From Thermodesulfovibrionales bacterium (lineage in GTDB: Bacteria; Nitrospirota; Thermodesulfovibrionia; Thermodesulfovibrionales; SM23-35), in the NCBI GenBank assembly GCA_963715195.1, contig CAVQRT010000029.1, positions 1 through 16,573 of the forward strand: DNA of 16,573 nt. Reading direction: 5' to 3'. Below, piece by piece: positions 353 to 16,439 of the stretch. The notes beneath the pieces were generated by a model. That model ran no database searches. It saw nothing but the letters and a program-made list of their open reading frames with translations, and had not been told where the DNA came from. Within the stretch, counting starts at the first letter, position 1, and each line of letters starts with the position of its first letter. The position numbers and the translations under genes are program-made.

Positions 353-361
353 TGGTATAAT
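353..361 (+). promoter_or_regulatory. Extended -10 promoter element for the DUF4833-like gene
   Basis: TGGTATAAT (TGnTATAAT), 65 nt upstream of ATG 427. Confidence 0.45.
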
Positions 362-426
362 GAGTGGGAACGACCCATTAGCATATGTGCTGGTTTGCCG
401 TGAAACACTTATTTATTCAGAGACAA

Positions 427-1030
427 ATGAACAAGATATTGTGGTGGATTGCCGTTCTGGTATTGATTACCCAGGCTAATGCCCAGATTACTACTTCACC
501 GCTGTTTATCATCGAGCAGACAAGATGCAAATGTCGTGCATTACGTCGCCCAGCTAACCGCTGATGGCAAGCTTGACCCCAATGAGCCGGTGACTGCATA
601 CTGGGTAATGCTCGCCGAAGACGGTCGCCGCAAAAAACTAAACTGGATCGAGAAGAGAAAAGCCTATGGGTTTACCATTAAGCATGGAGTGTCGGCAAGT
701 AGCTATATAATGACCCTGGTGGCATACCCCGAACTTCAGATTACGGTCAAGCAGGAGAACGATTCCGTTCTTGCCGAGACGGTTATCAATGGTAGGCCTG
801 CTGTCTTGGGAAAGATGTTTATCAACGCATCCGAAGGGCTATTTGGACCCACAGTCCTATCCATTGAAGTATATGGTAAAGATCTACAGACAGGGGAGAT
901 GCTCCGCGAAAAGTTGGTGCCAGGAATAATCATCTTCGTACCGTCGTCTTTCGTTAGATTCCCTTTAAAGGTCACACAGATCAAGAAGTGTGAATGGTGC
1001 GCAGTTGATGAAGAAGTGAAAAATCTGTGA
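427..1030 (+). pseudogene. DUF4833-like exported protein, frameshifted
   Basis: ATG 427 encodes a signal peptide MNKILWWIAVLVLITQANA followed by ..PLFIIE. The body (DANVVHYVAQL..LDPNEPVTAYW..LNWIEKRKAYG..GKDLQTGE) is in the next frame (ORF 479-1030), with the shift near 515-525. The probable native stop TAA 927-929 is out of frame again. Family name is from recall. Confidence 0.6.
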
Positions 1031-1157
1031 AAGCAATCTTGGGTGTCTCTTCCCATTAGTACTGATCATGGCAAGTAAAAGTTATGGAATTGTGAATGTC
1101 TCATCCCGATAATATTAAGTAGTAATAATTGCTATCTTCGTTTGCAGTTGAGCGTCT

Positions 1158-1940
1158 TTATAGGACTCCGAGTATCCAACCCTCGATGCCGGCAACAGTC
1201 TTTTCCGGTGGTGTGAGCGGCGGATTAAAAAACATCTGCAGTGAGTTATCAAGGTCCGCGCGACGGAGCCAAGCAGACACGCTATAAGCCGCCTGTTGGT
1301 CGCTGTTCCTATCATCTATTAGGAAGCGACGCATCCAAAGAGATGGATAAACTTCTACTATAAGAGACTTTGAAGGCGATATCGTCCAACCATCAAATGG
1401 CCAAAAATGCACGAGTTCTCTGGTGTGCATACGCAAATATCGTAGCCACGGTAGACCCGCGTGCGTCGATTTTGCGACAGAACCTTGGACATCAAATTTA
1501 AAGACAGATTTCGCGGTAGCCGTCCATTCCTCTGTCAATCGGAGCCACGATGGATGTCCCGTTCTCATAGCACCTTGACCATGAAGACCTTCACGTATGA
1601 AATCAACGTACATATGATCTTTGTCAGTTGGCCAGTGTTGCTGAAAATCATCGAGAAACTTTTCCCAGTCAGGCTGTAGAAGATGGGATTCAAAGTAACG
1701 CAGCGGAAATGAAAATCCGTGGTCAATTCCAACAATGGTCAGCCGACCTTTAGATAGTTCATCTCGAAGCCATTCAGCTATTCCACGTCGTGTCCAATAT
1801 CGCCTCGGGCTGGGTGGAGGGTAAACTTCCTGTGGCTGGCTCTCTTTGTTCGCCCTATAAACTCTCAATCCACTTAGGCTCGATGTCGGGGTTTCAGCAC
1901 CTGAGTAATCGATACCTATGTATTGTTCAAATAGTGCCAT
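1158..1940 (-). CDS. DUF429-like predicted nuclease (RNase H fold)
   Basis: 260-aa ORF with motifs YIGIDYSGA, VGIDHGFSFP, RLTE, HFWPFDGW and VEVYP, typical of this family. Confidence 0.7.
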   Translation of the reverse strand: MALFEQYIGIDYSGAETPTSSLSGLRVYRANKESQPQEVYPPPSPRRYWTRRGIAEWLRDELSKGRLTIVGIDHGFSFPLRYFESHLLQPDWEKFLDDFQQHWPTDKDHMYVDFIREGLHGQGAMRTGHPSWLRLTEEWTATAKSVFKFDVQGSVAKSTHAGLPWLRYLRMHTRELVHFWPFDGWTISPSKSLIVEVYPSLWMRRFLIDDRNSDQQAAYSVSAWLRRADLDNSLQMFFNPPLTPPEKTVAGIEGWILGVL

Positions 1941-2028
1941 AGAAATTAACAGAGCCTCATGTTTTGCTGATCATCTAGTGGCCGATACAACATCCGATAT
2001 AGGGAGATAAATAAAGACAGCTATGGTT

Positions 2029-2376
2029 TCAAGCTGTCTTCCGCTTTGCGGTTTCCTTTTCGAGGACATCGACTATATACTTATTAAGCGTGACTCCTCT
2101 CTTCGTTGCCTCCAAGGCAATGTGCTGGTGCAGTCTGGAACCAACCCTAATATTAAAGGATCCCTTGAATGGTTGCTCAGGTTCTTTCCCTGTTTCCTTA
2201 CAGGTCTGAAGGTAGTCGTCAACAGCTTCCTCGAAGGATTTACGCAGTGAGGTAACATCAGTGCCTTCATAGCTGACAAGGGCGCGGATGAACTCGACCT
2301 TCCCGTAAAATACTTTGTCCTCATCGCTGTAATGAACTGATCCGTAATAATTCTTGTATTTCATCATGTCTTTCAT
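2029..2376 (-). CDS. hicB: Type II TA antitoxin HicB
   Basis: MKYKNYYGSVHYSDEDKVFYGKV..FEEAVDDYL..PFKGSFNIRV..LH..LN, with a C-terminal RHH-type segment. Overlaps the hicA stop by 4 nt (ATGA). Confidence 0.92.
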   Translation of the reverse strand: MKDMMKYKNYYGSVHYSDEDKVFYGKVEFIRALVSYEGTDVTSLRKSFEEAVDDYLQTCKETGKEPEQPFKGSFNIRVGSRLHQHIALEATKRGVTLNKYIVDVLEKETAKRKTA

Positions 2377-2627
2377 ATCAATCCCTCTGCTCTTAAGGTT
2401 TCCTCGACTTGCTCCAACTGGTACTTTTTCAATACCGGTGTTGGATGCGGTTTGTGCAAAATAATGGGCGGCAGGGTTTCATGCATGAACTTAACCCTTG
2501 ATCCCCCGGTCTTTCCAGCTTTTGCCAATTTGTATCCAAATCCGTTTAACAGGTTGACAAGTTCCTGCCAGGTGAAGTCACTGGGCCTTGACAGGATACG
2601 ATCGATACTCTTTTTACGTCTACTCAG
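2373..2627 (-). CDS. hicA: Type II TA toxin HicA (mRNA interferase); likely CTG start at 2627 (ORF track starts at GTG 2642)
   Basis: PSDFTWQELVNLLNGFGY..KTGGSRVKF..LHKPHP..LKKYQ. SD AAGGAGG at 2639-2633 lies 5 nt before CTG. Confidence 0.9.
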   Translation of the reverse strand: MSRRKKSIDRILSRPSDFTWQELVNLLNGFGYKLAKAGKTGGSRVKFMHETLPPIILHKPHPTPVLKKYQLEQVEETLRAEGLI

Positions 2628-2667
2628 GGAATCCTCCTTCACAGACTTCCCAATAACTCATGAGCCT

Positions 2668-2710
2668 AGTGTATCAGGAATGAACAACAAAAGCAACTAT
2701 ACTTAGTTGC
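2668..2710 (-). promoter_or_regulatory. hicAB sigma70 promoter with overlapping palindromic operator (probable HicB site)
   Basis: -35 TTGCTT (2696-2691), 17 nt, TGA-TACACT (-10 at 2673-2668). Inverted repeat GCAACTA-tact-TAGTTGC at 2693-2710 overlaps the -35. Confidence 0.7.
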
Positions 2711-2816
2711 AAACTCGCCTAGACAGTACAGTCGGCTTGGATCGTTGTTCCGCTTTTTGATTTCTCTTAAAAGGGCAAAATATGCAAATATTACGTTGAA
2801 GCGTTATTACTGAGAA

Positions 2817-2838
2817 CGTGACTAAATCGTGACAGAAT
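2817..2838. repeat. 11-bp direct repeat, candidate integrase arm-type sites
   Basis: CGTGACTAAAT CGTGACAGAAT, about 120 bp inside the att site. Confidence 0.5.
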
Positions 2839-2955
2839 ATATCCAAAAATATCGAAACATATATAACAATATCTAAATAAGTAGAAACTGTAACTGCTTG
2901 GCGGTTAAGGCTTTTTCTGCTATTTTCAAGCACTTATGAATTCCCGTCAACAAAA

Positions 2956-3000
2956 TTCCTAAACCTGGTGTCGCAGGTTCGATTCCTGCAGGGGGTACCA
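2956..3000 (+). other. 3' half of tRNA-Arg(CCT), an att site duplication rather than a complete tRNA
   Basis: Anticodon loop TTCCTAA, T arm GCAGG-TTCGATT-CCTGC, acceptor 3' strand and ACCA. No D arm or acceptor 5' strand upstream. Confidence 0.85.
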
Positions 3001-3106
3001 TTTCCCTTATTTTTCAAGTACTTTTTGTCAGTCTTCTGGTGACTGATTGCGACTGATTCTAAAGGTAGGTATTTCTAAACACCTTGATTTTAATGAATAA
3101 TTGCAG

Positions 3107-3141
3107 AATCGACACCAGGTTAAATGGTTCTGGTGTCGATT
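3107..3141 (+). terminator. 12-bp perfect hairpin, possible terminator
   Basis: AATCGACACCAG (3107-3118) / CTGGTGTCGATT (3130-3141), with only a weak U tract after it. Confidence 0.45.
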
Positions 3142-3264
3142 TCTTCCTCAGGGTGGTCATCAGTATAGATCCTATTGAAGAATCTGGCAAGAAGTAGGAG
3201 AAGAATTTTTGTTTAGTTTGTTTTAAAACAGAGGTCCCTGTGAGTTCTTATGACAACAGGCGCT

Positions 3265-3280
3265 ATCCGCCTCGGCGGAT
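3265..3280. repeat. Small GC-rich palindrome (REP-like)
   Basis: ATCCGCC-tc-GGCGGAT within an AT-rich intergenic region. Confidence 0.5.
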
Positions 3281-3361
3281 TCGTTGGGGAGAGCCCAAAA
3301 ACTTTTCCTGTACATACGCTTGACATGAATTGCATTTTTTGAATTAAATGCTGATAATCTA

Positions 3362-3871
3362 ATGCAGGAGAAAAGGGACAGAATGCCTCATGACGACATA
3401 TTAGACAGGCATCAGGATGTTAAGAAACCGGCATATCATTATGAAATCCTCATAAAGAGTCCAGGATTTGAACTGTGCAAAAAGAAAGTTCTGCTTTTTT
3501 TTGAAAAATATCGGCTTGTCCGTTTCAGTGTCATTTCAGTACATGAAAGTGCATCTCTTTCTGCTATGCATCCGGCATTTCACGGAAGACTCAGGGAAGC
3601 AATCCTTGCAAACCGCAGAATATTAGATGACCTTATCAGAGAGTTGCAGGAAGAAAAGGTAACGACTCTGAACGACCTGAATTTGCTCCCTCAGGGGTAC
3701 AAAACCAAACTGCTCCACGTCATCACCCATTTTCTCGACGGCTTCTTCGGTATTGACACGTACTTCTATAATCTCATCGAAGATTCGCACTGGGTTTCAG
3801 AGAAAATGCAGAGCGCAATAGGGGAAGCGCCTGCTGATTATTGGCTTCTGTCCCTTGATGCCCGCATTTGA
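3362..3871 (+). CDS. Conserved hypothetical protein (true start may be ATG 3383)
   Basis: 169-aa ORF filling the gap before rpsT, with motif HFLDGFFGIDTYFYNLIEDSHWVS. TTGCAT-N17-GATAAT (3330-3358) plus GGAG 3367-3370 favours the second ATG. Confidence 0.8.
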   Translation: MQEKRDRMPHDDILDRHQDVKKPAYHYEILIKSPGFELCKKKVLLFFEKYRLVRFSVISVHESASLSAMHPAFHGRLREAILANRRILDDLIRELQEEKVTTLNDLNLLPQGYKTKLLHVITHFLDGFFGIDTYFYNLIEDSHWVSEKMQSAIGEAPADYWLLSLDARI

Positions 3872-3932
3872 TATTGCTTTTCAACCGTCCGCTATGGTAT
3901 TTTTATAGTCTAATTTAGACAGGAGGTTCGAA

Positions 3933-4229
3933 TTGCCAGCAAAAGCGAGACCGAAGAAAAACCTTTCAGCCATGAAGAGGGCAAGACAGAGCGTCAAAAG
4001 AAGCCTTCGAAACAGGAGTGTTTTGAGCAATTTGAAAACTATCACAAAGAAGGTTGAGACAGCGATCACTGCAGGGGCCCGGGAAGATGCAGAAAAAGCC
4101 CTCTTGCAGGCAATAAAAGCGTTGGACATGGCTGTGTCAAAGGGTGTGATCCACAAGAATACTGCCTCAAGGAAGATATCCCGGCTTACCCGAAAGGTGA
4201 ATGCAGTCTCTGGAGCCGCAGCAGCTTAA
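3933..4229 (+). CDS. rpsT: 30S ribosomal protein S20
   Basis: SAMKRARQS..RN..LKT..KGVIHKNTASRKISRL. TTG start with SD AGGAGG at 3921-3926. Confidence 0.97.
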   Translation: MPAKARPKKNLSAMKRARQSVKRSLRNRSVLSNLKTITKKVETAITAGAREDAEKALLQAIKALDMAVSKGVIHKNTASRKISRLTRKVNAVSGAAAA

Positions 4230-5106
4230 CAAGAAGGTATTCCACCGGAAAATTCCTTCCCGAGCTTTTCATTTCGATATCTGCCTGATGAAGAAGTCCG
4301 AATATATTCAGGAGATATGCTTTTTCCTGCTGGCTCATCTTTTCACTGAAAAAACGCGCATATTGCCAGTTCAGGGCACCAATCAGGCCATAATCGTCTG
4401 AAGTCTCTTTCAGGGATTTATATATCCGGAATACCCTGTCGGAGTCCTGCTCCCTCAGCGCATTGACCAGGTCAAAAATACCGTACTGCCTTCCCCCGGC
4501 AACAATATCCGAGATGTCATCAATATCGATCTTCTTCTGACCGGCAAAGGAGATTTTTTCGATCTCGGCCGACAGAAGTCCGGGGTCATATCCCACAAGA
4601 CTGATAATATATTCAACAGCATCATCAGAAATATCGATGCCCTTTGCTTTAATGTTCTGCTTTATCCACTGTGGAATTTCCGAGTCCCTCATATCGATGG
4701 ATACGGGCTTGAAGGCCTTGAATTTTTCCTTCGCTACTTTGCTCAGGACGCCAACATGGAAAATTACGAGGACTGAATCCTGCGGCGGTTTTGCAGCATA
4801 TATTGCGAGCTTTTCAAGATCGTCTTTCAGAAATTTCTGAAGGTTTCCAGTCATGATTGTGAACCGTTTGCCGCCGAAGAAGGAGGCGGTGTTTGCTACC
4901 TCGAGAACCCGTTCGAGCGTAGTATTTTCCTCTCCCTGCGTCAAGAGATCAAATATGTGGAGATTGAAGTCTCTTTCGGCAACGGGAACCAATGTTCTGA
5001 CTGCTCCAAGGGCCTCCCGGCAGAGAAACGGGTCTGACACGGAAAAGAGATAGACAGGAGATGGAAGTCCCTTCCGTACCTCGTTCAAAAAAGACTGGAG
5101 ACTCAT
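4186..5106 (-). CDS. holA: DNA polymerase III subunit delta
   Basis: PVYLF..DFNL..ANTASFFGGKR..EIEK..IFDLVNAL, in the canonical leuS-lptE-holA synteny. Confidence 0.9.
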   Translation of the reverse strand: MSLQSFLNEVRKGLPSPVYLFSVSDPFLCREALGAVRTLVPVAERDFNLHIFDLLTQGEENTTLERVLEVANTASFFGGKRFTIMTGNLQKFLKDDLEKLAIYAAKPPQDSVLVIFHVGVLSKVAKEKFKAFKPVSIDMRDSEIPQWIKQNIKAKGIDISDDAVEYIISLVGYDPGLLSAEIEKISFAGQKKIDIDDISDIVAGGRQYGIFDLVNALREQDSDRVFRIYKSLKETSDDYGLIGALNWQYARFFSEKMSQQEKAYLLNIFGLLHQADIEMKSSGRNFPVEYLLVKLLRLQRLHSPFG

Positions 5107-5624
5107 CGGTACATGAGTGCTGCAACAATCTGTTGTGCTATGTCGCGGATTGCCCTTTCGGAGGCAAGTTCCTTGAATGCGAGAAGTGTCGTTAACTGTC
5201 CTGATCCGGAAAAAGAGATGATAAAAGGGGAGCCGATATCCTTGAGCTCTCTGACATACCCTGAGGGGCCTGAAACCAGGAAATCACCCTTCATGACTAT
5301 TTCATATTCAGTAGCTATATCTGACGTTTCAGACAGTATCCGTAATTCAAAAAGATTGATCTTTCCCCGCAGGTGATAATCGGCCCCGGGATGAACCGCA
5401 AAGCCCTGCCTGAGAAGTTCATCGGTTAATGCCAGCGAGAGCTTATCCTGGAGTTTCGGCTCATCGGTTCTGTTTTCTATGCGATCTATCTGTATGGCTT
5501 GAAATGGGAACGATTTCTTGCTGTGGATGGCATATCCACAAGAAAAGACAGTAGATAGTAGACAGTAGATAATAGACAGGATAATTATATTTTGAGTTTT
5601 GGATTTTGATTTCCGGGTTTTCAT
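5103..5624 (-). CDS. lptE: LPS assembly lipoprotein LptE family
   Basis: Lipobox VFS-C29-GY, ENRT-EP-L motif, position between leuS and holA. Confidence 0.85.
   Translation of the reverse strand: MKTRKSKSKTQNIIILSIIYCLLSTVFSCGYAIHSKKSFPFQAIQIDRIENRTDEPKLQDKLSLALTDELLRQGFAVHPGADYHLRGKINLFELRILSETSDIATEYEIVMKGDFLVSGPSGYVRELKDIGSPFIISFSGSGQLTTLLAFKELASERAIRDIAQQIVAALMYR
5546..5618. repeat. Heptamer tandem repeat tracts within the lptE signal peptide
   Basis: AGACAGT AGATAGT AGACAGT AGATAAT AGACAGG (5546-5580). A second, degenerate tract at about 5590-5618 reads ATCAAA ATCCAAA ACTCAAA on the mRNA. Confidence 0.8.
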
Positions 5625-8107
5625 TAATTGCCAATGACTATATTAACCAGTTTTCCCTTAACGACGAGGACTTTCCGTATCTCTTTTTCACCGATTATTT
5701 CCTGAACCCTCCGGTCCGCGAGAGCGATCTTCTTTATATCATCATCCGGCATGCCGACTGATATCATAATTTTTGACCTGAGCTTCCCGTTCACCTGAAT
5801 TACGAGTTCTATCTCCTCTTCCGTGGCAGCTTCTTCATCCCATGCGGGCCATGGCTGCTCAGAAATGCTCGGCCAGTTTCCAATAGCCTCCCACAGCTCC
5901 TCGGCGATATGGGGAGAAAACGGTGAAAGCAGCAAAAGGAGCTGCTGCACTGCAAACCTCAATACCGACTGATCCTCTTCTGATGACGGATCAAAGGAAG
6001 CAATTTCATTCATCAGCTCCATCATTCCCGCTATCGCAGTATTGAAATGATACTCACGTTCGATGTCGGTTGTTACCTTTTTTATAGTCTGATGAGTTTT
6101 TTTGTACAGTGCCGATGCTGAAGGTTGCAGGTTGGAAATATCCTGGATTTTTGATTTAGCATTCTGGATTTTCGAATGGTTTTTGCGGACGACGCCCCAG
6201 AGTCTGTTCAAAAAACGGTATGCGCCGTCAACGCCTTTGTCGGCCCATTCGAGATCTTTTTCCGGCGGAGCGGCAAAAAGGGTAAACAACCGGGATGTAT
6301 CAGCTCCGTACCGATGTATCAGATAATTCGGATCAACAACATTCCCTTTGGATTTCGACATTTTTGCGCCATCTTTGATGACCATGCCCTGCGTCAGGAG
6401 GTTCTGAAACGGCTCGCTGATGTGAATGAGCCCCAAGTCACGGATCACCCGGGTAAAAAATCGGGAATAGAGCAGATGAAGCACAGCATGCTCGACACCC
6501 CCGATATACTGGTCAACAGGCATCCAGTGCTGTACCTCCGAGTCCTGACCCGTCATTTCGGATATGATGTCGATATCTCCCTGCGCAAGACAGTAACGGA
6601 TAAAGTACCAGGATGAATCAACAAAGGTATCCATGGTATCAGTCTCTCGCCGGGCTCTCCCCCCGCATTTCGGGCACGCCGCGTTCAAAAAAGCTGCCGA
6701 CTCAATGAGCGGTGAACTGCCTTTCCCGGTAATCGTTGCGTCTTCAGGCAGTACCACCGGCAGGTCTTTCTCCGGTACAGGAACAGTACCGCAGGTGTCG
6801 CAATATATGACCGGTATAGGAGTGCCCCAGTACCTTTGGCGGGAAATGCCCCAGTCCCTGAGCTTAAAATTTACGACTGCTTTCCCAAGCCCTTCTGCTT
6901 CAATGAACCGAATGATTTCTCGTTTTGCTCCGCCGCTGTTCATGCCGGTGAACATGCCTGAATCGACAAGGACGCCTTCATCTTCATAGGCCTCTTGAAG
7001 TTCCGAAAAGACATCTTCCCCCACCTTTCCCGATTGGGAGGAAGGGGCAGGAATGATAACCACTTTTACGGGCAATCCGTATTTTTTTGCGAACTCAAAG
7101 TCGCGCTGATCATGGGCCGGAACAGACATGATGGCTCCGGTCCCGTATTCCATCAGAACAAAGTTTGCAATATAGACAGGGATTCTCTTACCATTCAGCG
7201 GGTTGACGCAGTAATGGCCGGTGAATAATCCTATTTTTTCTGTGTCTTTCCCGTATTTGGCTTTTAAGGTTTCTACTGCCTCGGAATCGACGGTTAGCTG
7301 CTCGACGACCGGATGTTCAGGAGCGACACACATAAAGGTAACGCCAAAAAGGGTGTCAGGCCGTGTCGTAAAAATTCTTAGTTTCTCGCTTATCCCCTCG
7401 AGGGGAAATTCCACTTCAACGCCTTCTCCTTTCCCGATCCAGTTTTTCTGCATCAGGACCACTCTTTCAGGCCACCCCCGGAGTTCGTCGCACCCCTGCA
7501 ACAATTCTTCCGCATAATGCGTAATTTTAAAAAACCACTGCTCCAGTTTTTTCTGGATAACGATACTGTCACAACGCCAGCATTTTTCGTCGATAACCTG
7601 CTCATTGGCGAGCACGGTAGCACAGGAAGAACACCAGTTCACATAAGAATATTTCCTGTAGGCAAGACCTTTCTCGAGCATCTTCAGGAAAAACCATTGA
7701 TTCCAACGGTAGTATTCCGGCCGGCAGGTGGTGACTTCTCTTCCCCAGTCATAGCTGAGCCCCATCCGGTCGAGCTGTTTCTTCATATTCTCTATGTTCC
7801 GGCAGGTCCATGCGGAAGGATGCACGCCGTGTTTGATTGCAGCATTCTCAGCCGGCAACCCAAAGGCATCCCACCCCATCGGATGGAGGACAGTATATCC
7901 GCACATTCTTTTATAGCGCGCAATCACATCCCCTATGGCATAATTTCTGACATGACCCATGTGGATTTCTCCTGATGGATACGGGAACATTTCGAGGCAG
8001 TAGTACTTCTTCCGGGACGGGGATCTCTCCGTCTTATAAAGCTCCCTTTCCGACCAGTATTCCTGCCACTTTGATTCAACCGTTTGGGGATTGTATTTCT
8101 CTTCCAA
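5624..8107 (-). CDS. leuS: Leucine--tRNA ligase
   Basis: MFPYPSG..HMGH, FTTRPDT editing motif, KMSKS, QVNGKLR. TTG start with SD GAGGAGG at 8123-8117. Confidence 0.99.
6117..6175. repeat. Heptamer tandem repeat tracts in-frame in leuS
   Basis: mRNA strand TCGAAAA TCCAGAA TGCTAAA TCAAAAA TCCAGGA tat TTCCAAC CTGCAAC CTTCAGC, encoding [20 protein letters not shown]. Confidence 0.75.
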
Positions 8108-8139
8108 AAACAGATTCCTCCTCTGATCACTCGAGCGGT

Positions 8140-8148
8140 ATTATATCA
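8140..8148 (-). promoter_or_regulatory. Internal extended -10 promoter for leuS-lptE-holA
   Basis: TGATATAAT on the minus strand, about 33 nt upstream of the leuS start. Confidence 0.6.
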
Positions 8149-8180
8149 AAAAGGGCACTGCAAAAAATGGGGAGATACGG

Positions 8181-9488
8181 TTACGCGGAAAGGTTCAACT
8201 GATAGGTGCTCCATTTTTGACAGGCAGCACACCTCCCCGACCATTCCGGTGAGGTATGCTGGCAATGACTGCAACGGTAAGACAGACTGAACGCACAGGC
8301 ATTTGACTCCAAAGCCTTTTTGTACTCATGCACAGCCTTGTCAATCTGATTTCGCTTAATATAGAGATTGCCGAGCAGTTGATGCATCTCCGGATACACA
8401 GCACTGCCGGTGTCGATCGAGGTCATTATTTCGAATGCGTCGTCGATCATTTCGAGCCGATAATACAGTCTCCCGAGGAAAAACTTGATAACCGGGTCCT
8501 GAGGGTTCTTTAATATATTATTTTTGTAGATTCTGATGAGTCTGAGCGGTTCACCGACACTGATCAGCAGGTCCTCAAGTCGCAGGAGAACGATCATGGA
8601 TGCAGTCTGCTCATGATTCTTTTCGAGAAGGTTGATCGCCTCCTCGTTCTCTCCTTCCCTCAGCAGGACCTCTGCAAGCCCCAGGGTCGCTGGAATAAAA
8701 TCTTTTTCGAGCCTGAGGACTGTCCTGAATGCCTTTTTTGCCTTTTCAAGGGTGCCGCTTTCGAGACTGTGCCTGCCGTACTCATATTTATACCCGACGA
8801 GATTCAGCCGCTCCCGGTTTTTATCCTTCTCGGTATGCTCATTCTTGAGAATGGTTTTCTGGATAAAGACAAGATCATCCCATTTTTCGAGACGTTCGAG
8901 AATATCTCTTTTTTTGTACAGGGCCGACAGGTTTTTATCGTCAATTTCGAGGATTTCCTCGATATATTTCAGGGCATTGGGCCATCGCCCCATCTTCTCC
9001 ATGAGTCTCTCAACGGAAAAGAGCACCTCGATATTTCTTGGATTGAGATCCCGCGCCCGCTCATAATTTTCGCGCGCCGTTTGAAAATCATCCTCAGAAA
9101 GCGCTATGTCCCCGAGTTGAAGCAGTGCGTTCAGATGCTCGGGGTCTTCACCCAACACTGCCTGAAAAAGTTCTTTGGCTTCAGGAATGTTGCGATGTGC
9201 AAACAGATGATTGAGGCCCTTCGCGTATAATTCCTGGATTTTTGCACCACGTTTCTGTTTTTTCTGGTACTGCAGATTACTGACGTATCGTTTAGTATCC
9301 CTCACGATAAAGACAAAAAGCATGGTAAGCGCACCGATTGCGATCGAGAGGAGAATGAGGGCTATGGTTGGTGTTTCATATGCGGTGCCGAACGGGATGG
9401 CAACGGTAGTGGATTGTTGATTATGGATAGCAAAAAGCGCAAGTATTGCCAGGAAGATGACGAAGATAAAAACCATCAGTTTACTCAT
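8181..9488 (-). CDS. LapA(DUF1049)-LapB-like fusion: two TM helices, TPR array, C-terminal rubredoxin-like CxxC..CxxC
   Basis: N-terminus LFAIHNQQSTTV..LILLSIAIGAL is LapA-like. Multiple TPRs follow, then YRCSHCQHTSPEWSGRCAACQKWST as in LapB. Confidence 0.8.
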   Translation of the reverse strand: MSKLMVFIFVIFLAILALFAIHNQQSTTVAIPFGTAYETPTIALILLSIAIGALTMLFVFIVRDTKRYVSNLQYQKKQKRGAKIQELYAKGLNHLFAHRNIPEAKELFQAVLGEDPEHLNALLQLGDIALSEDDFQTARENYERARDLNPRNIEVLFSVERLMEKMGRWPNALKYIEEILEIDDKNLSALYKKRDILERLEKWDDLVFIQKTILKNEHTEKDKNRERLNLVGYKYEYGRHSLESGTLEKAKKAFRTVLRLEKDFIPATLGLAEVLLREGENEEAINLLEKNHEQTASMIVLLRLEDLLISVGEPLRLIRIYKNNILKNPQDPVIKFFLGRLYYRLEMIDDAFEIMTSIDTGSAVYPEMHQLLGNLYIKRNQIDKAVHEYKKALESNACAFSLSYRCSHCQHTSPEWSGRCAACQKWSTYQLNLSA

Positions 9489-9499
9489 ACGCGGTTTCG

Positions 9500-9841
9500 T
9501 TAATCGATCTGTATTCTCTTAGCATCGATCCACAGCTTTTCTAATTCGTAGAATGCCCGTGTCTCCTCTTCAAAGATATGCACAATGATATCTCCGTAAT
9601 CCATAAGTACCCAATGGCAATACCGCAGTCCTTCGACTCTGAGGAGTCCGGCGCCTTGGGCTTTCAGTTTATCTTCGATATATTCTTCGATTGCTTTTAT
9701 CTGGGGGGTGCTCTCACCTGAACAGATTATGAAAAAATCAGCGATGGTAGTTATTCCCTGTAAATCGAGGATAACGACATCTTTTGCTTTCTTATCGAGT
9801 GCTGCCCTTGCCGCGACAAAGGCCTTATCTTTGCTTTCTAA
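9500..9841 (-). CDS. rsfS: Ribosome silencing factor RsfS (missing from ORF track; non-canonical start)
   Basis: Manual translation LESKDKAFVAARAALDKKAKDVVILDLQGITTIADFFIICSGESTPQIKAI..VEG..WVLMDYGDIIVHIFEEETRAFYELEKLW..*, in nadD-rsfS synteny. Confidence 0.95.
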   Translation of the reverse strand, partial: LESKDKAFVAARAALDKKAKDVVILDLQGITTIADFFIICSGESTPQIKAIEEYIEDKLKAQGAGLLRVEGLRYCHWVLMDYGDIIVHIFEEETRAFYELEKLWIDAKRIQID

Positions 9842-9868
9842 AGGTAATCCCTCCCTTCAATAAAAAAA

Positions 9869-9957
9869 TAAAATGAATAGGTAAAAGTGAAAAGCGAACA
9901 ATTAAAAGCAAAAAAAACACCAAACATGACAATGATTCAGTCTTAACTTTTAACTCT
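9869..9957. repeat. Paired, roughly complementary heptamer tracts in the nadD-rsfS spacer
   Basis: TAAAATG AATAGGT AAAAGTG AAAAGCG AACAATT AAAAGCA (9869-9910) and TCTTAAC TTTTAAC TCT (9941-9957). Confidence 0.7.
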
Positions 9958-9958
9958 T

Positions 9959-10612
9959 CTATGTGTAAAGCTTATGAGTAATTATATAGGATTGCACCTT
10001 GGGTGGCAACAGATATTTTATACTTTTCCCCTGCCTGAGAGAGAGGCGTATTTGGGTTGAGGATATACCTACAGGAGTTTGCCTGAGAAGAACGGCATAC
10101 CGCTCCGACTTCAATCTGATGACATTGGTTGTATTCCTGGCAAGGTCGACATCTCTCAAAAGCCTGATGCCCGTTTTCAGATAGGGAGATCCCCGCATCA
10201 TGCTGAACAAGAACCCCGGCCTGGAAAGGACAACGAAATCGGTCATTGAAACAAGTTGTTCCGGTCTCCACCAATGAGGGATGTCGAGAAATGCGTCGAT
10301 ACCGAGGATGAAGAAGAATCTTGTCCCCGGATGGATGTCACGTAAAGCTTCGAGGGTCTTTACCGTATATGCTTTACCGCGTTTCCTGCATTCTATGTCG
10401 GACAGCTCAAAAAAAGGATTTCCCAGCAGTGCTATCCTGAGCATCTCATACCTGTGTTTTGCCGGGACGATCTCCCTTGTCTTAAGAGGTGGTTTGCCTG
10501 AAGGTATGAAAAGGATCTTGTCAAGGCCGAGTTTTTCACGCACCTCTTCTGCAGCCCGCAGGTGGCCAAAATGTACCGGATTGAATGTCCCCCCAAAAAA
10601 TCCAACGTTCAT
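9959..10612 (-). CDS. nadD: Nicotinate-nucleotide adenylyltransferase
   Basis: GGTFNPVHFGH, YTVKTL, FILGID, W motif and ISSTQIR. Confidence 0.97.
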   Translation of the reverse strand: MNVGFFGGTFNPVHFGHLRAAEEVREKLGLDKILFIPSGKPPLKTREIVPAKHRYEMLRIALLGNPFFELSDIECRKRGKAYTVKTLEALRDIHPGTRFFFILGIDAFLDIPHWWRPEQLVSMTDFVVLSRPGFLFSMMRGSPYLKTGIRLLRDVDLARNTTNVIRLKSERYAVLLRQTPVGISSTQIRLSLRQGKSIKYLLPPKVQSYIITHKLYT

Positions 10613-10636
10613 CGGATACTTCCTCTATATAGATTA

Positions 10637-11893
10637 TTATTCCCTCAGTTGCCCATTCCCTAGCACAATAAACTTTGTGCAGGTTAATTCTTCGAGTCCC
10701 ATCGGCCCCCGTGCATGGATTTTGTCAGTAGAAATCCCGATCTCGGCGCCGAGTCCGAACTGAAACCCGTCGTTCAGTCGTGTTGAAGCATTAACAAAAA
10801 CTGCTGATGAATCAACCTCACGCAAAAATCTCATTGCACGCTCGTGGTTCATCGTCACGATGGAATCGGAATGTGCTGACCCGTATCTGGCGATGTGTTC
10901 TGTTGCCTCATCCATGTCACCAACAACCTTCACATTGAGGATCAGATCAAGATATTCGCGGTAAAAATCTTCCTCCTTCACTTCCGGTATGTTCGGATAG
11001 ATTGCAATCGTCTTCCGACAACCCCGCACTTCGACTCCTGCAGTCTCGAACCTTTTCAGCATGACCGGGAGGAATCCATCAGCAATAACCTCATCGACAA
11101 GCATTGTCTCCATCGCATTACACGTCCCCGGCCGCTGGACTTTTGCGTTGAAACATATTTCTTCCGCCATGATGAGATCAGCATCCTTATCCACAAAAAC
11201 ATGGCATACTCCCTTGTAATGCTTGAGAACCGGGATCCTTGAATTTTCTGTTACGGCTCTTATTAACGCCTCCCCGCCTCTCGGTATGATCAGATCAACG
11301 GTCCCCTCGAGCTTCAGCATCTCCATGATTGCCTCTCTGTCAGGAATGTCAATAAAGCTTATAGCACCGCGGTGAAGACCCTGTTTTTTTAACGCATCCC
11401 TCAGAACCTTTACTATGGCCTTATTTGAATGAAGGGCCTCAGATCCGCCCCTAAGGATGACCGCATTGCCTGCTTTCAGACAGAGTCCTGCGGCATCTGC
11501 CGTGACATTCGGGCGCGATTCATAGATAATTCCGATAACCCCGATTGGAACCCTCATCTTGCCGACATTCATTCCATTTGGCCTCTGCCACATTCCGGTA
11601 ATTTCACCGACGGGATCGGGCAGAGCCGCGACCTCTGCAAGCCCTTTTGCCATCTCATCAATCCGTTTTTCGTTTAATGTCAGCCGGTCTATGAGCGCTT
11701 TTGAAAGCCCTTTTCCTCTGGCGAACTGCACATCTTTTTTATTTGCGCTCATCAGTTCCTTTGCTTTTTTCTTCAGGGAGTCTGCCATTGTCATAAGAGC
11801 AGCATTCTTTTGACCGGATAGTGCCCGCGCAAGTCCCCGTGCACCCTCTTTCGCCTCCATTGCGATATCCATCACATACTGTTTTATGTCCAT
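10637..11893 (-). CDS. proA: Glutamate-5-semialdehyde dehydrogenase
   Basis: [61 protein letters not shown] at 11905-11899. Confidence 0.98.
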
Positions 11894-11921
11894 AATTGCC
11901 TCCTCAGATGATATGCTACAG

Positions 11922-11990
11922 ATTATACCTGAAACCGGATCACTTTGAGAAAATCCACAGATTGACTTACCATTACCCTGCTTTTAAAAT
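11922..11990. promoter_or_regulatory. Divergent proA / mutL promoters
   Basis: Minus: TATAAT 11927-11922 (proA). Plus: TTGACT 11962-11967, 17 nt, TAAAAT 11985-11990 (mutL). Confidence 0.65.
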
Positions 11991-11995
11991 GTCAT

Positions 11996-13678
11996 ATGCC
12001 GCAGATCAGGATTCTCCCCGCTGATTTACGAAACAAAATTGCTGCCGGAGAGGTAATCGAAAGACCTGCATCTGTTGTGAAAGAGCTGATCGAAAATTCT
12101 CTTGATGCAGCAAGTACGGATATCCGTATTGAAGTCCTTTACGGGGGGAAGCGTCTCATAAAAGTATCGGACAACGGCACCGGCATGGATAAAGACGATG
12201 CACTCCTCTGTTTTCAGAGCCACGCCACAAGCAAACTAGCGAATGAAGATGATCTGTTCTCTATCAGGTCACTTGGCTTCAGGGGTGAGGCCCTTTCTTC
12301 GATCGCATCAGTTTCGAAAGTCACCCTTGTTACCGCACCGCAGGGGAATCCCCTTGGTGTATCTGTAGAACTCTCCGGCGGTATTGTAAGGGAAGTCAGG
12401 GATTCCCCTGCTCTCGGAACGACAATTGAGGTTAAGGACCTCTTCTTTAATACTCCGGCACGGAAGAAATTTCTGAAGTCGACAAGCACGGAGCTGTACC
12501 ATATCATCGACATAGTTACCAAAGAGTCCTTATCCCACTGGGATACCGCCTTCAGCCTTTTGATTGACCATAAAGAGACTCTCGATGCCGCGCCGTCGTC
12601 AGGCCCGAAAGAGCGGATCATGCAGATTTACGGAGAGGAGTTTGTGAAAGGGTTGAATGGTGTCCGGTCGCAAGCGGCGGGCATACAATGCATCGCCTAT
12701 GTATCGAGGAGCGCCAATTTCCGGAGCACAAAGTCCCATCAGTTCATCTTTCTGAACAAACGGCCGGTTAAGGATCAGGCTTTATCTCACGCAGTATACC
12801 GCGCCTATGAGGGGATTCTTCCCCATGACAAGCATCCGATCTTCTTTCTTTTTCTTGATGTGGACCCGTCAAGAGTTGATGTCAATGTTCATCCGGCAAA
12901 AAGGGAAGTCAGATTTCAGGATAAAGAGTTTGTATACCGGTTTGTTCATGATGCGATCAGAACGCCGGTAAGAGAAGAACGATCGGAATTTATCAGACCA
13001 TTTATGGAGACATCCACAACAACTGTGCCCGGGCACGTTGATGAGCATTCACCATTCAACACATCCCGAATTCCGCAACAGGAAATGACGGTTGCAGAAA
13101 ATCTCGAATTTATCTATACGCCGGCACTGCCCCATCTCTATCTCGGAGACACCTTTATAGCTCTTTCCGGGAAAGGGGGGCTGACCCTCATTGATCATCA
13201 CGCAGCCCATGAACGGATACTCTATGAGAAATTTCTGAAAGGGGTGCATCTGAATGCTCACCATCTCCTGTTCCCAAAACAGGTACAACTTTCACAAAGG
13301 GAATACCGGCTTATCCTCGGGCATACCGGTACGTTAAGGGATTTCGGGATAGATGCTGAGGATTTCGGACACAACACGATCATTATCCGGTCTCTCCCCG
13401 ATATTTTGCAGAATGCTGACATGCAGGGCATTCTCTCTGATATCGCCCGGTACCTCGCCGAAGGCATTTCTCCTGACAAACCTCTTAAAGAGACTCTTGC
13501 AGCAAAGATCGCATGCCACAGCTCTGTCCGCGGAAAGAAAATCTTGAATCAGGAGGAACTGTCAGCCCTGATAACTGATCTGGAGAAGACAGAGCATCCG
13601 GATCAGTGCCCGCACGGCAGGCCGACAAGGATTTTCTTTACGAAGGATGACTTGAAGAAGTTGTTCAAGAGGAAATAA
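11996..13678 (+). CDS. mutL: DNA mismatch repair endonuclease MutL
   Basis: IAAGEVIERPASVVKELIENSLDA, GFRGEAL, DVNVHPAKREVRF, and endonuclease motifs DHHAAHERILYE, ACH, CPHGRP. Confidence 0.98.
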   Translation: MPQIRILPADLRNKIAAGEVIERPASVVKELIENSLDAASTDIRIEVLYGGKRLIKVSDNGTGMDKDDALLCFQSHATSKLANEDDLFSIRSLGFRGEALSSIASVSKVTLVTAPQGNPLGVSVELSGGIVREVRDSPALGTTIEVKDLFFNTPARKKFLKSTSTELYHIIDIVTKESLSHWDTAFSLLIDHKETLDAAPSSGPKERIMQIYGEEFVKGLNGVRSQAAGIQCIAYVSRSANFRSTKSHQFIFLNKRPVKDQALSHAVYRAYEGILPHDKHPIFFLFLDVDPSRVDVNVHPAKREVRFQDKEFVYRFVHDAIRTPVREERSEFIRPFMETSTTTVPGHVDEHSPFNTSRIPQQEMTVAENLEFIYTPALPHLYLGDTFIALSGKGGLTLIDHHAAHERILYEKFLKGVHLNAHHLLFPKQVQLSQREYRLILGHTGTLRDFGIDAEDFGHNTIIIRSLPDILQNADMQGILSDIARYLAEGISPDKPLKETLAAKIACHSSVRGKKILNQEELSALITDLEKTEHPDQCPHGRPTRIFFTKDDLKKLFKRK

Positions 13679-13683
13679 AAAAC

Positions 13684-13741
13684 GATACAGGATACAAGAT
13701 ATATAGGGGTAACATCGAAGGCATCATGCATTCTGCACGAT
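13684..13741. repeat. Paired heptamer tracts in the mutL-miaA spacer
   Basis: GATACAG GATACAA GATATAT (13684-13704) and GCATCAT GCATTCT GCACGAT (13721-13741). The second tract runs into the miaA ATG. Confidence 0.75.
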
Positions 13742-14747
13742 GAATAAAGTCATCATTCTGCTCGGGCCTACAGGCGTTGGAAAAACCGGCGTTTCCCTCC
13801 TCCTTGCAAAAAACCTGAAGACAGAGATCATCAGTGCCGATTCCATGCAGATTTACCGGAATATGGATATCGGGACTGCCAAAGCATCTCCTGCGGAGAG
13901 GAAATGCGTTACGCATCACATGATCGATGTTGCAGAGCCGTGGGAGATGTTTAGTACCGGAAAGTATATTGCAGCAATGAAGCCGATTATTGAATATCTC
14001 CTTATGCAGGGGAAGATTCCGATTGTCGTGGGAGGAACAGGCCTGTATATCAGGGCAATGACGAGGGGTATTTTCAGTGGTCCATCTGCTGACTGGACAT
14101 TACGGGAGGAGCTCCTTACGATTGAACAGGAAGGACGGGGCACCTTGTATGATTCCTTAAAAATCCTCGACCCTGTTGCCGTTGAAAAAATAACACCGAA
14201 TGACACGCGAAGGCTTATACGGGCGCTGGAAGTATGCTTCAAGGGTCGTTCAAAGATTTCAGAACTGCAGAAAAGACTCACCCGGCCTCTGCCCTATGAC
14301 TTTATCAAGATCGGCATTACCCGTAAGAGAGAAGAACTGTACCGGTTGATTGAAGAGCGGGTAGATAAGATGATTGAGGCAGGACTGATAGAGGAAGTTA
14401 AGACCGTAATGAATTTGATGAGTGAGCATGCCCAGATTCAGGCTGCAGCAAGGAAGAAGCAAGATGAAAAAAATCAGGTATCGACGATCAGGGAACATGA
14501 ATATTCCACCCTGCCTTCATTCCAGGCTATAGGATACAAGGAAATTGTTCGCCATCTCCGGGGAGAATTCGGCCTGAGTGAGGCTATAAACCTTATCAAG
14601 AAAGCATCAAAAAGGTACGCCAAGAGGCAGTTTACCTGGTTCAGAAAAGAAGAGGATATCCGCTGGGTTGACATAACCGGGATAACAGATCCTCATGAGG
14701 TTCTCTGTAAGATCAATCCGGTTCTCGAAAAACTCTCCACATCCTAA
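13740..14747 (+). CDS. miaA: tRNA dimethylallyltransferase
   Basis: GPTGVGKT, DSMQIY..MDIGTAK, VGGTGLY, QAIGYKE, YAKRQFTWF. Confidence 0.98.
   Translation: MNKVIILLGPTGVGKTGVSLLLAKNLKTEIISADSMQIYRNMDIGTAKASPAERKCVTHHMIDVAEPWEMFSTGKYIAAMKPIIEYLLMQGKIPIVVGGTGLYIRAMTRGIFSGPSADWTLREELLTIEQEGRGTLYDSLKILDPVAVEKITPNDTRRLIRALEVCFKGRSKISELQKRLTRPLPYDFIKIGITRKREELYRLIEERVDKMIEAGLIEEVKTVMNLMSEHAQIQAAARKKQDEKNQVSTIREHEYSTLPSFQAIGYKEIVRHLRGEFGLSEAINLIKKASKRYAKRQFTWFRKEEDIRWVDITGITDPHEVLCKINPVLEKLSTS
14435..14502 (+). repeat. Degenerate paired heptamer tracts forming an in-frame insertion in miaA
   Basis: GATTCAG GCTGCAG CAAGGAA GAAGCAA GATGAAA (14435-14469), then AATCAGG TATCGAC GATCAGG GAACATG AAT (14472-14502). 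Confidence 0.6.
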
Positions 14748-15454: not shown

Positions 15455-16133
15455 ATGCTCAAGGCGATGCGCAAGCATGCACGGTATTTTTATGTTCTTT
15501 TTTTTATTGTCATATTAACATTCATATTCTGGGGAGTGGGAACCGTCGATAAAACAGGCGGGAAAGAAATCCTCGCAGAGGTTGGGAAATACAGGATAAC
15601 GACAGAGGACTACTGGAGGACATACGACAGGGTTTACCGTTTCTACAAGGAAATTTACAAGGACCAGTTTGATGAAGAGATGGAGAAAAAGATGAACCTG
15701 AAAGATAATGTCCTCAATTCCATGATCAATGAGCGTGTTCTGCTTACAGCAGCCCAAAAAGCAGGGATTGCGGTAAGCGATGAAGAACTACAGGATTCGA
15801 TAGCCCGAGAGTCTGCCTTTATGAAAAACGGCGTATTCGACAAAGATGTCTATGTGAACAGATTACGGCTTAACAGAATCACTCCTGAAGAATTTGAACG
15901 TTCACAAAAGCAGGAACTGATTCTGAGCAAAGATGAGACGATTGGTGGAATTGTCTGTCGACGTTCCTGATAGCGCTGACGGTAAGCTTTCTCAGGACCC
16001 GTCAAACGGACAGGCTTCACAGATGATTCATCAGGCTATGCTGAATGATCTCAGGGAAAAAGCCTTAAACTCATATATAGAAGGGCTGAAAAGGAATATA
16101 AAAATAAAGGTCAACAAAGATCTCATAGCCTGA
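15455..16133 (+). pseudogene. SurA N-terminal-domain (PpiD-like) membrane-anchored chaperone with a +1 frameshift (possibly a sequence error)
   Basis: MLKAMRK..TM..FIFWG..AEVG..GIAVSDEEL..F..NGVFD..Y (15455-15970) continues in the next frame as MRRLVELSV..LKRNIKIKVN. Deleting one A at 15929-15931 gives one 225-aa ORF. Confidence 0.75.
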
Positions 16134-16192: not shown

Positions 16193-16278
16193 GCCGAAGT
16201 GGTGGAACCTGGTAGACACGCACGTTTGAGGGGCGTGTGGGGTAACCCGTGCGGGTTCAAATCCCGCCTTCGGCACCA
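16193..16278 (+). tRNA. tRNA-Leu(GAG)
   Basis: Acceptor GCCGAAG/CTTCGGC, anticodon arm CACGT-TTGAGGG-GCGTG, long variable arm, T arm GCGGG-TTCAAAT-CCCGC, encoded CCA. Confidence 0.97.
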
Positions 16279-16351: not shown

Positions 16352-16439
16352 ATACACTTATACAAAGACTCATTTCTCTCATTTTTTCTTTCACATTTTC
16401 TTCATTCTTCCTTCATATCTTTTGTTTAACCTAAGATTA

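Follow-up and report, generated by a model that had tools for sequence, protein, structure and literature searches.

Tandem heptamer tracts in core operons of a Thermodesulfovibrionales genome and their likely relation to small-gene cassettes

The 16,573-nt stretch of DNA analysed here (the window), from an uncultured member of the Nitrospirota, carries short, closely spaced tracts of degenerate 7-nt repeats in several core operons, some of them translated inside conserved proteins, which raises the question of where such tracts come from. The first-pass annotation had placed paired tracts at five loci, namely lptE, leuS, the nadD-rsfS spacer, the mutL-miaA spacer and miaA, and had suggested that they are possibly empty sites of small gene cassettes.

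Repeat tracts in the window and across the genome

A scan of 14-nt windows for at least 10 matches at lag 7 returned positives at 5541-5579, 5588-5612, 6114-6139, 9876-9900, 9935-9959, 13678-13705 and 14449-14471. Nine period-7 matches were found in 5501-14550 against a mean of 1.26 for codon/block shuffles (maximum 6; none of 300 shuffles reached 9), so that the tracts described earlier do stand out from codon-preserving shuffles, miaA (14435-14502) being marginal when taken alone. TRF gave a single report in the window, 5546-5579, with 77% match at period 7, indicating degenerate units. Genome-wide, tracts scoring at least 10 numbered 48 at period 7 against 4 in one shuffled genome and 27 against 5 at period 8, the corresponding values being 5 against 4 (period 5), 12 against 2 (period 10), 24 against 3 (period 11) and 10 against 7 (period 13). 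At scores of at least 14, 22 tracts of period 7, eight of period 8, two of period 11 and one of period 13 were left, with zero in every null.

The tandem 7-nt units are thus enriched over chance, mainly between co-oriented genes. In the spacers between such genes they are polarised: 28 of the 37 tracts near a stop are purine, and 15 of the 18 near a start are pyrimidine. Many unrelated 7- and 8-mer unit families coexist in this genome, most of them not G-rich, and no set of one to three consensus units accounts for them. The view that units differ between loci while a period of 7 is kept holds for the units, but not for the period, since relatives carry 8-mers at the same sites. Peptides encoded by the arms differ in mean hydropathy (-0.75 for 5' arms versus +0.52 for 3' arms, n=29). 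Peaks inside genes fell at the N-terminus in 11 of 54 cases versus 14% expected, and no genome-wide enrichment was seen in signal peptides (at p<0.02, 16/620 versus 3/366 for hydrophobic segments inside proteins, close to chance); the gene calls of this genome are from a simple caller and some starts are wrong.

Small-gene cassettes with repeat arms in relatives

The idea that such tracts flank small genes of the four-helix-bundle kind (PF05635/TIGR02436) was confirmed in related genomes. Cassette loci numbered 91, or 88 after removal of three under 40 bits (L280, L281 and L334), about 50 weaker PF05635 matches having been left out; L257 and L298 are probably one gene, while L001 and L002, from an assembly with 6.57% contamination, hardly differ from each other. 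After exclusion of seven more cassettes without a 150-nt flank, 51 of 81 genes had tracts on both sides, compared with 3 of 911 control genes. The two arms are reverse complements (5-mer cosine 0.305 versus 0.037; 0/5000 permutations) and share the same period in 48 of these 51 cassettes. In the usual layout, a purine-rich arm follows the upstream stop and its reverse complement precedes the downstream start. Tracts on one side or none were found for 34/88 cassette genes and unrelated tracts for 5/88, while direct copies of an arm occur on both sides of the gene in 19/88; one PIN/DUF2281 pair also sits between direct arms. All six cassettes that were folded (L333 not among them) gave stems of -38 to -70 kcal/mol, and those of L301 and L329 end just 5' of the purine-rich site preceding the next start. 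Four-helix-bundle genes are present in 24/24 same-family genomes, and the genome under study has two cassettes.

Across different sites the unit tracks the lineage of the cassette protein (Mantel r 0.24; 0/5000), with 78 cassettes in the protein tree and 53 in the site test. Units are shared by four of five different-site pairs at 70% protein identity or above versus 28 of 1258 below 45%, and by only 7 of 28 at 55-70%. The permutation values given here and below overstate significance, since the genomes compared are related and do not count as independent.

For 16 of the relatives' cassettes, both flanks could be placed on neighbouring genes of the present genome; 11 of these junctions are pristine, two have a tract pair without a gene, one holds a DUF559 gene and two have longer spacers without a called tract (41 of the 88 cassettes had no flank mapped in this genome). 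The finding that 11 of 16 junctions are tract-free here while the relatives have both arms and gene suggests that arms and gene come in together. A junction in the his operon is filled in four relatives, where two of the fillers are 31% identical and have unrelated units. At orthologous sites, alignment revealed that the unit is exchanged between relatives, mostly on both arms at once, and that lengths vary too, which agrees with the variability anticipated earlier; the host tree (FastTree, 24 rows) has weak resolution and served only to follow unit changes within one supported clade.

Pristine, filled and gene-less junctions therefore exist, as the empty-site reading would have it, but no filled state was encountered at the five window sites, and a four-helix-bundle ORF is absent from between the tracts at all of them. 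For tracts inside genes that reading fails: none of the 88 cassettes, 41 of them without a mapped flank, has its two flanks within a single gene here. No cassette lies inside aroC in the 55 of 57 genomes that gave a match, 26 of 30 loci having been parsed; in the aroC loop many units are one or two bases apart among relatives, and they form an in-frame net insertion. Since gene-sized inserts are also missing from the miaA and leuS orthologues examined, in-gene tracts are not simply empty cassette sites.

The five loci and their orthologues

Scores for the window were also obtained with 10-mers taken from the arms of cassettes in other genomes, the null share being the fraction of null windows scoring as high. 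Null shares for the two tracts of a locus were 2e-5 and 2.6e-4 (lptE), 7e-5 and 0 (nadD-rsfS), 1e-5 and 0.035 (mutL-miaA), 0.0027 and 0.056 (leuS) and 0.02 and 0.21 (miaA). Peaks above the 99.9% null level were confined, in the whole window, to lptE, nadD-rsfS, mutL-miaA and 16388-16427; positions 1-5500 had none. Four of the five loci are solid and miaA is marginal. The units of the nadD-rsfS and mutL-miaA spacers were found again on cassettes L333 and L329. The hairpins envisaged for the two spacers were not supported in the window, as folding was no better than for dinucleotide shuffles at any of the five loci (z -1.07, -0.81, +0.80, -0.95 and +0.17).

The lptE gene (5103..5624, minus strand; PF04390) has a start overlapping the leuS stop. 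Its first tract, A-rich and AAATCCA-type (5589..5612, minus strand), codes for the basic n-region KSKSKTQN of a predicted signal peptide, and the second, TCTACTG-type (5546..5583, minus strand), for the hydrophobic h-region ILSIIYCLLSTV up to the lipobox, whose Cys codon is at 5538-5540. Most of the LptE export signal, as predicted from sequence, would therefore be supplied by repeat tract. The two tracts belong to different families and are mutually non-complementary, and their halves covary across relatives (n=35; 0/5000). In 25 of 36 junctions the periodicity of the h-region exceeds that of codon shuffles, six or more unit families being involved. The frame stays open, with a start 14 or more codons ahead of the mature part, in 35 of the 36, the remaining one having a 14-codon leader without repeats. 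Folding at z<-2 is lacking in 22/36, and none of 39 instances of the leuS-lptE junction (repeats of the same genome included) is in the filled state.

Within leuS (5624..8107, minus strand; leucine--tRNA ligase, TIGR00396), an AAATCCA-type tract (6141..6178, minus strand) codes for 12 residues and is weak alone, with the null share of 0.056, whereas a CCTTCAG-type tract (6114..6139, minus strand) codes for SNLQPSAS. The two are of mixed families and non-complementary, and the halves covary across relatives (n=29; 0/5000). The segment aligns to a solved LeuRS without a gap and has normal length with no residues added; it must thus be an overwrite and not an insertion, contrary to the earlier reading of an inserted segment. 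For leuS this is one of the outcomes that the first-pass annotation had named as refuting its proposal.

In the spacer between nadD (9959..10612, minus strand; TIGR00482) and rsfS (9500..9838, minus strand; TIGR00090, start not fixed), the purine-rich GAGTTAA-type 5' arm (9935..9959, minus strand) is immediately 3' of the nadD stop, and a decayed, pyrimidine-rich CTTTTCA-type 3' arm (9866..9915, minus strand) lies ahead of the rsfS ribosome-binding site. The halves covary (n=42; 0/5000), and folding at z<-2 was seen for 17 of 23 relatives' spacers with tracts versus 3 of 27 without. The filled state is absent from 157 instances (same-genome repeats included) and from a DNA search of 56 other family genomes. 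Two gaps above 1.7 kb, considered as filled sites, proved to be a different gene order in Caloramator. Junctions bearing tracts were also seen to accept unrelated palindromes.

Between mutL (11996..13678, plus strand; TIGR00585) and miaA (13740..14747, plus strand; TIGR00174), a 61-nt spacer holds a GATACAG-type 5' arm (13680..13705, plus strand) and a decayed CATCCTG-like 3' arm (13720..13741, plus strand), the latter being the tract with null share 0.035. None of 23 instances (same-genome repeats included) is filled; two long gaps tried as filled sites contain other genes and no tracts. An in-frame insertion of about 27 codons in miaA (14430..14515, plus strand) includes the marginal decayed tract at 14449-14471, and its halves do not covary (3395/5000 permutations reach the value; n=19).

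Origin of the tracts and relation to known systems

As the window tracts match cassette arms of relatives, they are likely left-over or copied arms. We give a probability of roughly 0.6 to the reading that they are decayed arms from the 7-/8-mer families of four-helix-bundle cassettes. The two spacers and the leuS-lptE junction would then be gene-less scars or arm pairs, and the LeuS and MiaA loops would be arms copied in without a gene at tolerant positions. In a filled cassette the arms are predicted to pair in the operon mRNA as a stem of 25-40 bp, with the cargo looped out and the end near the next ribosome-binding site, so the operon would keep working; cleavage of the stem by an RNase III-type enzyme is possible by analogy with rRNA intervening sequences (IVSs), the only RNA run, in contig form, containing 9% of the words. 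The cassettes may spread by host recombination without a recombinase of their own, using either the conserved genes on both sides or short stretches of homology among same-family arms. Recombination between direct arm copies would delete the gene and leave a scar, and slippage may alter unit number. Three 7-mers encode a 7-residue peptide repeat, polar or basic from purine arms and hydrophobic from pyrimidine arms, and a read-through scar hence looks like the n-region and h-region that signal peptides have; it is likely kept because the leader is cleaved off. A more ambitious and rather unlikely reading is that of a new class of mobile element without a recombinase. Avd-like four-helix-bundle protein lineages would each recognise their own 7-/8-base repeat and use it both to insert themselves at operon junctions, beneath a hairpin in the mRNA, and to write over tolerant parts of essential genes, so that signal peptides and core-enzyme loops would be rewritten time and again from a small library of heptad peptides.

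That the tracts are microsatellites born by slippage wherever tolerated, paired in spacers by selection for hairpins into which small genes later drop, is a minority position that deserves attention. Tracts that stand alone and unpaired are frequent in coding loops, stepwise slippage could have produced the aroC-loop units without any cassette, and site preference follows host sequence, as the commonest nadD-rsfS unit among relatives matches the final nadD codons. Empty sites at all five loci also suit it, as do heptamer repeats over-represented in many bacteria (as cited in the relevant part of PMC4692102). However, it leaves aside that unit type tracks the cassette protein across sites, that one junction has unrelated cassettes with unrelated units and that both arms change together. 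The lineage coupling would equally be expected if the protein, a distant relative of Avd of diversity-generating retroelements (NF033474), bound its own repeat RNA and helped a polymerase or reverse transcriptase to write arms with or without the gene, and whole-unit swaps at fixed protein positions with unchanged length do resemble templated overwriting. We find this quite improbable: the protein's score of 35.6 bits on the Avd model is below the cut-off of 80, physical linkage alone explains the coupling, and no reverse transcriptase is tied to the cassettes. None was found in 12 of 24 same-family genomes (drafts may miss genes), one such genome having 12 four-helix-bundle matches, and the sole cassette-adjacent one (L387), among three loci inspected, is the RT-Cas1 of a CRISPR locus; a reverse transcriptase as a requirement for cassettes was accordingly rejected.

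Selected mRNA elements tuning core operons, such as stabilisers, processing sites or attenuators akin to REP hairpins, would account for tract polarity and for nadD-rsfS hairpins that recur with different sequences, non-heptamer palindromes included. They are very unlikely to be the explanation, however, as among 56 distinct spacers between nadD and rsfS six fall short of 35 nt and 24 others lack both tract and hairpin, the mutL and miaA stop and start overlap without a spacer in 16/23 instances, and the window copies are decayed. We see hardly any chance that the in-gene tracts are contingency loci, with slippage acting as an on/off switch for lptE, leuS or miaA. Gain or loss of one 7-nt copy shifts the frame, but these are housekeeping genes, the lptE frame is so widely kept, and the window units, unlike those of phase-variable simple repeats, are degenerate. 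With no indel listed in the four of four metagenomes covering the tracts (contigs, which hide rare variants), fast phase variation is unlikely.

The closest known system to the preferred reading, that of decayed cassette arms, is the ORF-bearing IVS of 23S rRNA. In the passages of PMC4990558 on Coxiella burnetii, the IVS is cut by RNase III, and heptamer repeats occur in its stem of 28 bp, which encloses the same gene family. Shared features are thus this gene family (S23p/PF05635) within complementary ends and heptamer arms of variable number, with a stem of ~28 bp in the IVS as described there. The elements studied here differ in lying at protein-coding operon junctions instead of a 23S rRNA helix, and in having dozens of 7-/8-mer units, gene-less pairs and repeats inside proteins. 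The long complementary stem recurs in filled cassettes and in the tract-bearing nadD-rsfS spacers that fold, but not in the window copies, and no ORF is present at the five window loci.

Heptamers of Xanthomonas (GGGAATC, often in inverted pairs, 70-75 pairs) and Nostoc (GGGGA(C/T)T) are treated in passages of PMC4692102 as G-quadruplex motifs, with a single unit dominating each genome; cyanobacterial STRR repeats (Mazel 1990) are cited there. As in those passages, the present tracts lie in tandem between co-oriented genes near stops and starts, with few within genes; the link to a cargo gene has no counterpart in them. The P6b hairpin of the cyanobacterial trnL intron is built of complementary 7-nt repeats whose class switched repeatedly while structure was kept (PMC4476775, in part). 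That case, as presented there, concerns non-coding RNA and two classes, whereas spacers and coding sequence are involved here, with six or more classes at a single site.

Rickettsia palindromic elements (RPEs) are palindromes of 100-150 nt with a conserved family sequence that add length to their hosts. The present tracts likewise are repeat DNA read in frame at tolerant positions of conserved enzymes, with in-frame net gain of the RPE type in MiaA and aroC but not in LeuS. Unlike RPEs, they are tandem arrays of 20-40 nt, often unpaired, with units differing between loci, and the window copies do not fold. In the open-access full-text literature we found no paper describing operon cassettes or translated arms.

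Bacterial heptamer repeats have been on record for decades with no origin to account for them; this locus and its relatives link them to a small-gene cassette related to rRNA intervening sequences. In this lineage repeats come and go within essential proteins. The LptE signal peptide, its export role being predicted, appears to have been respelled from unrelated repeat families, i.e., new functional peptide from mobile non-coding DNA. Two questions become testable, namely how a gene moves without a known recombinase and whether the encoded protein binds the repeat of its own cassette. Annotators should be wary of start sites and leaders, which can be repeat-derived in this lineage. The ends of the arms were also observed to merge into host codons.

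Period-7 tracts in the window and the genome

The tracts of 7-nt repeats at lptE, leuS, the nadD-rsfS spacer, the mutL-miaA spacer and miaA are a real feature of the window. Seven of those claimed by the first-pass annotation match a period-7 scan, which gives nine matches in 5501-14550; 300 codon/block shuffles average 1.26 and never reach nine. Genome-wide, 48 tracts of period 7 score at least 10, as compared with 4 when the genome is shuffled; the corresponding counts are 27 vs 5 at period 8, and 5 vs 4, 12 vs 2, 24 vs 3 and 10 vs 7 at periods 5, 10, 11 and 13. At a score of at least 14, 22 tracts of period 7 and eight of period 8 are found, with at most two for periods 5, 10, 11 and 13. 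The gene names assigned earlier are correct, namely holA, leuS, rsfS, nadD, mutL and miaA (NCBIfam) and lptE (Pfam PF04390).

The window was also scored with 10-mers from the repeat tracts (arms) that flank small four-helix-bundle genes in other genomes, such arm-gene-arm units being called cassettes. lptE, nadD-rsfS and the 5' mutL-miaA tract score far above the null, leuS moderately and miaA marginally; nothing is found in 1-5500, which includes the island at 1-3000. A further pyrimidine-rich tract at 16388-16427, 3' of tRNA-Leu(GAG) (16193-16278), scores against the same library.

Four-helix-bundle cassettes and operon junctions

The PF05635 family was detected in 32 of the 41 genomes searched, including all 24 of the same family as the genome of the window. 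That genome (36 contigs totalling 2.81 Mb, of which the window is C29; completeness 97.8 %, contamination 6.57 %) has two such genes (TIGR02436, 120 bits), near-identical copies, each with purine-rich heptamers on its 5' side and complementary heptamers on its 3' side. From 91 loci collected, 88 at 40 bits or more were retained. As guessed from the sequence at the outset, tracts (7- or 8-mers) flank these genes: 51 of the 81 with full flanks have one on both sides, as do only 3 of 911 similarly sized genes in the genome of the window. Both arms share the period in 48 of these 51. Across the set, they match each other's reverse complement far more closely than that of tracts from other cassettes (cosine 0.305 vs 0.037; 0/5000 permutations). 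Arm layouts among the 88 are inverted in 29, inverted and direct in 12, direct in six, self-complementary in two (one also direct), unrelated in five, and one-sided or absent in 34. All six cassettes that were co-folded form predicted stems (-38 to -70 kcal/mol), and in two of them the stem ends just 5' of the purine-rich site that precedes the following start.

Sixteen cassettes of relatives lie between genes that are adjacent in the genome of the window, and across the genomes a junction is seen pristine, filled or gene-less. In the genome of the window, eleven of these junctions are pristine, with gaps of -7 to 27 nt (two His_biosynth genes, ACS-CODH genes, PGM-ManC, a pilin-like pair and a kinase-regulator pair); two carry a tract pair without a gene, at radical SAM-uroporphyrinogen decarboxylase and at T2SS C-secretin, where the second tract falls in the leader at the secretin N-terminus; a DUF559 gene occupies one, and the last two have a longer spacer without a called tract. 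Four relatives carry a cassette at the his junction; two of the encoded proteins share 31 % identity and have unrelated units, so this site has been colonised more than once. Unit type follows the lineage of the cassette protein: units are shared between cassettes at different sites in 4/5 pairs at 70 % identity or more, 7/28 at 55-70 %, 6/71 at 45-55 % and 28/1258 below 45 % (Mantel r 0.24), values that are inflated by kinship of the genomes.

The five sites in relatives

Spacer tracts as a whole show polarity, with purine in 28 of 37 near a stop and pyrimidine in 15 of 18 near a start. Among 56 distinct nadD-rsfS spacers, six are shorter than 35 nt; of the 23 that contain tracts 17 fold at z<-2, and of the 27 that contain none three do so, through other palindromes; the spacer halves covary (n=42; 0/5000). 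The hairpin proposed for the window's own copies is not borne out, fold z-scores being -1.07 to +0.80, and lptE and leuS each combine two tracts from non-complementary families. The nadD-rsfS unit recurs in the arms of locus L333 and the mutL-miaA unit in those of L329. Stop and start of mutL-miaA overlap in 16 of 23 instances, two same-genus genomes among them, and the 61-nt spacer is therefore a recent gain. Between its arms (13705-13720), a purine run and, 6 nt on, an ATC resemble a ribosome-binding site and a decayed start, which may be traces of a cargo gene that has since been lost. REP-like, non-heptamer palindromes occur at nadD-rsfS (L075, L077, L079, L086, L114, L122) and leuS-lptE (L034, L040, L043, L049), sometimes nested between heptamer arms, and in lptE they are translated in frame.

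Units and lengths vary among relatives, as the first-pass annotation had asked, with unit swaps at lptE and leuS and length changes at leuS and miaA. The LptE leader is periodic beyond codon shuffles over its last 20 codons in 25 of 36 junctions, with at least six unit families that vary even within one well-supported clade; in three distant relatives (L060-L062) the leader is plain. Its halves covary (n=35) and only 14 of 36 junctions fold at z<-2. Three 7-mers encode a 7-residue peptide repeat whatever the frame. Peptides of 5' arms are polar or basic (mean hydropathy -0.75; stop within 18/29) and those of 3' arms hydrophobic (+0.52; 6/29), a character that matches what a leader has in its n- and h-regions. 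Tracts are not enriched in leaders genome-wide, so the LptE leader is a local takeover and no general rule. The leuS segment, with different units, measures 31-36 codons in 19 loci of the same family and 24-33 codons in six others; it aligns without gaps to a solved LeuRS (7nty), and hence is an overwrite. In MiaA the anchors are 24 residues apart in 11 loci and 28-58 apart in 17 (two loci unparsed), the protein of the window being about 27 residues longer than a solved MiaA. Several relatives show clear 7- or 8-mer pairs at this insertion, and the miaA halves do not covary overall among relatives. aroC is a sixth case: two of its loops carry tracts, singly or in pairs, that have many different units and always stay in frame. 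Chorismate synthase in the genome of the window (L351, contig C2, 110152-110248) has an in-frame complementary 8-mer pair (fold z -2.6 vs codon shuffles), and relatives have many other units at this loop and at the second one.

The idea that relatives carry a small inserted ORF between the tracts holds for other junctions, which cassettes fill; no filled state was found among 157 nadD-rsfS, 39 leuS-lptE and 23 mutL-miaA junction instances (repeats of the same genome counted), nor for nadD-rsfS in a DNA search across the family. No cassette was seen within a gene.

Origin of the tracts and neighbouring features

Taken as a whole, the tracts are best explained as decayed arms of four-helix-bundle cassettes, to which we give a probability of about 0.6. 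Arm pairing is predicted to loop out the cargo and would hold the stop of the upstream gene close to the start of the downstream one. Cassettes may spread by host recombination, and recombination between direct arm copies, which are present in 19 of 88 cassettes and likewise flank a PIN/DUF2281 pair, could remove the gene. Slippage would alter unit number, and single arms may be copied into coding loops, the least explained step. The data do not call for a retroelement mechanism: the cassette protein scores below cut-off for Avd, no reverse transcriptase was matched in 12 of the 24 family genomes and the single cassette-adjacent RT is RT-Cas1. Phase variation, in which tracts would switch by changes in length, is unlikely, as contigs from four sediment/seawater metagenomes, compared at contig level with two or more runs covering every tract, show substitutions and no indels.

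Rickettsia palindromic elements are a known comparison system. The Coxiella 23S rRNA IVS carries a gene of the four-helix-bundle family within a 28-bp stem; its heptamer repeats are variable in number, and RNase III cleaves it (PMC4990558). By analogy the cassettes may be IVS-type hairpin-armed insertions moved from rRNA to mRNA; they differ from the ORF-bearing IVS in location, and the window has what appear to be decayed arms only. Heptamers of Xanthomonas and Nostoc are described as lying between genes of the same orientation, frequently in inverted pairs (PMC4692102), and those of the Nostoc trnL intron as switching class within one hairpin (PMC4476775). Searches of the open-access literature turned up no description of such cassettes in operons that encode proteins, nor of arms that are translated.

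Some arrangements are more complex. In L389 (G005:C77), at 1121-2576, a GIY-YIG gene splits the four-helix-bundle gene and a DUF2281/PIN pair follows, with arms from one family before, between and after the genes, resembling a small cassette array. In L387 (G023:C32), at 4850-5830, an armed cassette lies between a CRISPR array and the RT-Cas1 gene, its first arm taking the place of the end of the last CRISPR repeat. A PF05635 match at G010:C9:408729-409043 lies within a 470-codon open frame apparently continuing into a pilin-like gene, a possible fusion.

The island carries, upstream of tRNA-free DNA, a HicA-HicB toxin-antitoxin pair (2029-2642; PF07927, PF05534); 479-1030 is a DUF4833 gene, and the ORFs at 1158-1940 (260 aa) and 3362-3871 (169 aa) gave no Pfam/NCBIfam match at the thresholds used. 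Near-identical stretches on separate contigs (L001/L002 on C5 and C3; C10 and C14) may reflect the assembly contamination. In 15455-16133, a SurA-like gene (PF13624) stops at 15970 and a second frame runs on at 15945-16133, which looks like a frameshift or assembly error near 15925. The LapB-like gene directly adjoins rsfS (9488-9500); relatives have a gap of at least 400 nt there in 38 of 103 instances, filled, in the cases inspected, by what is presumably an RlmH-like ORF.
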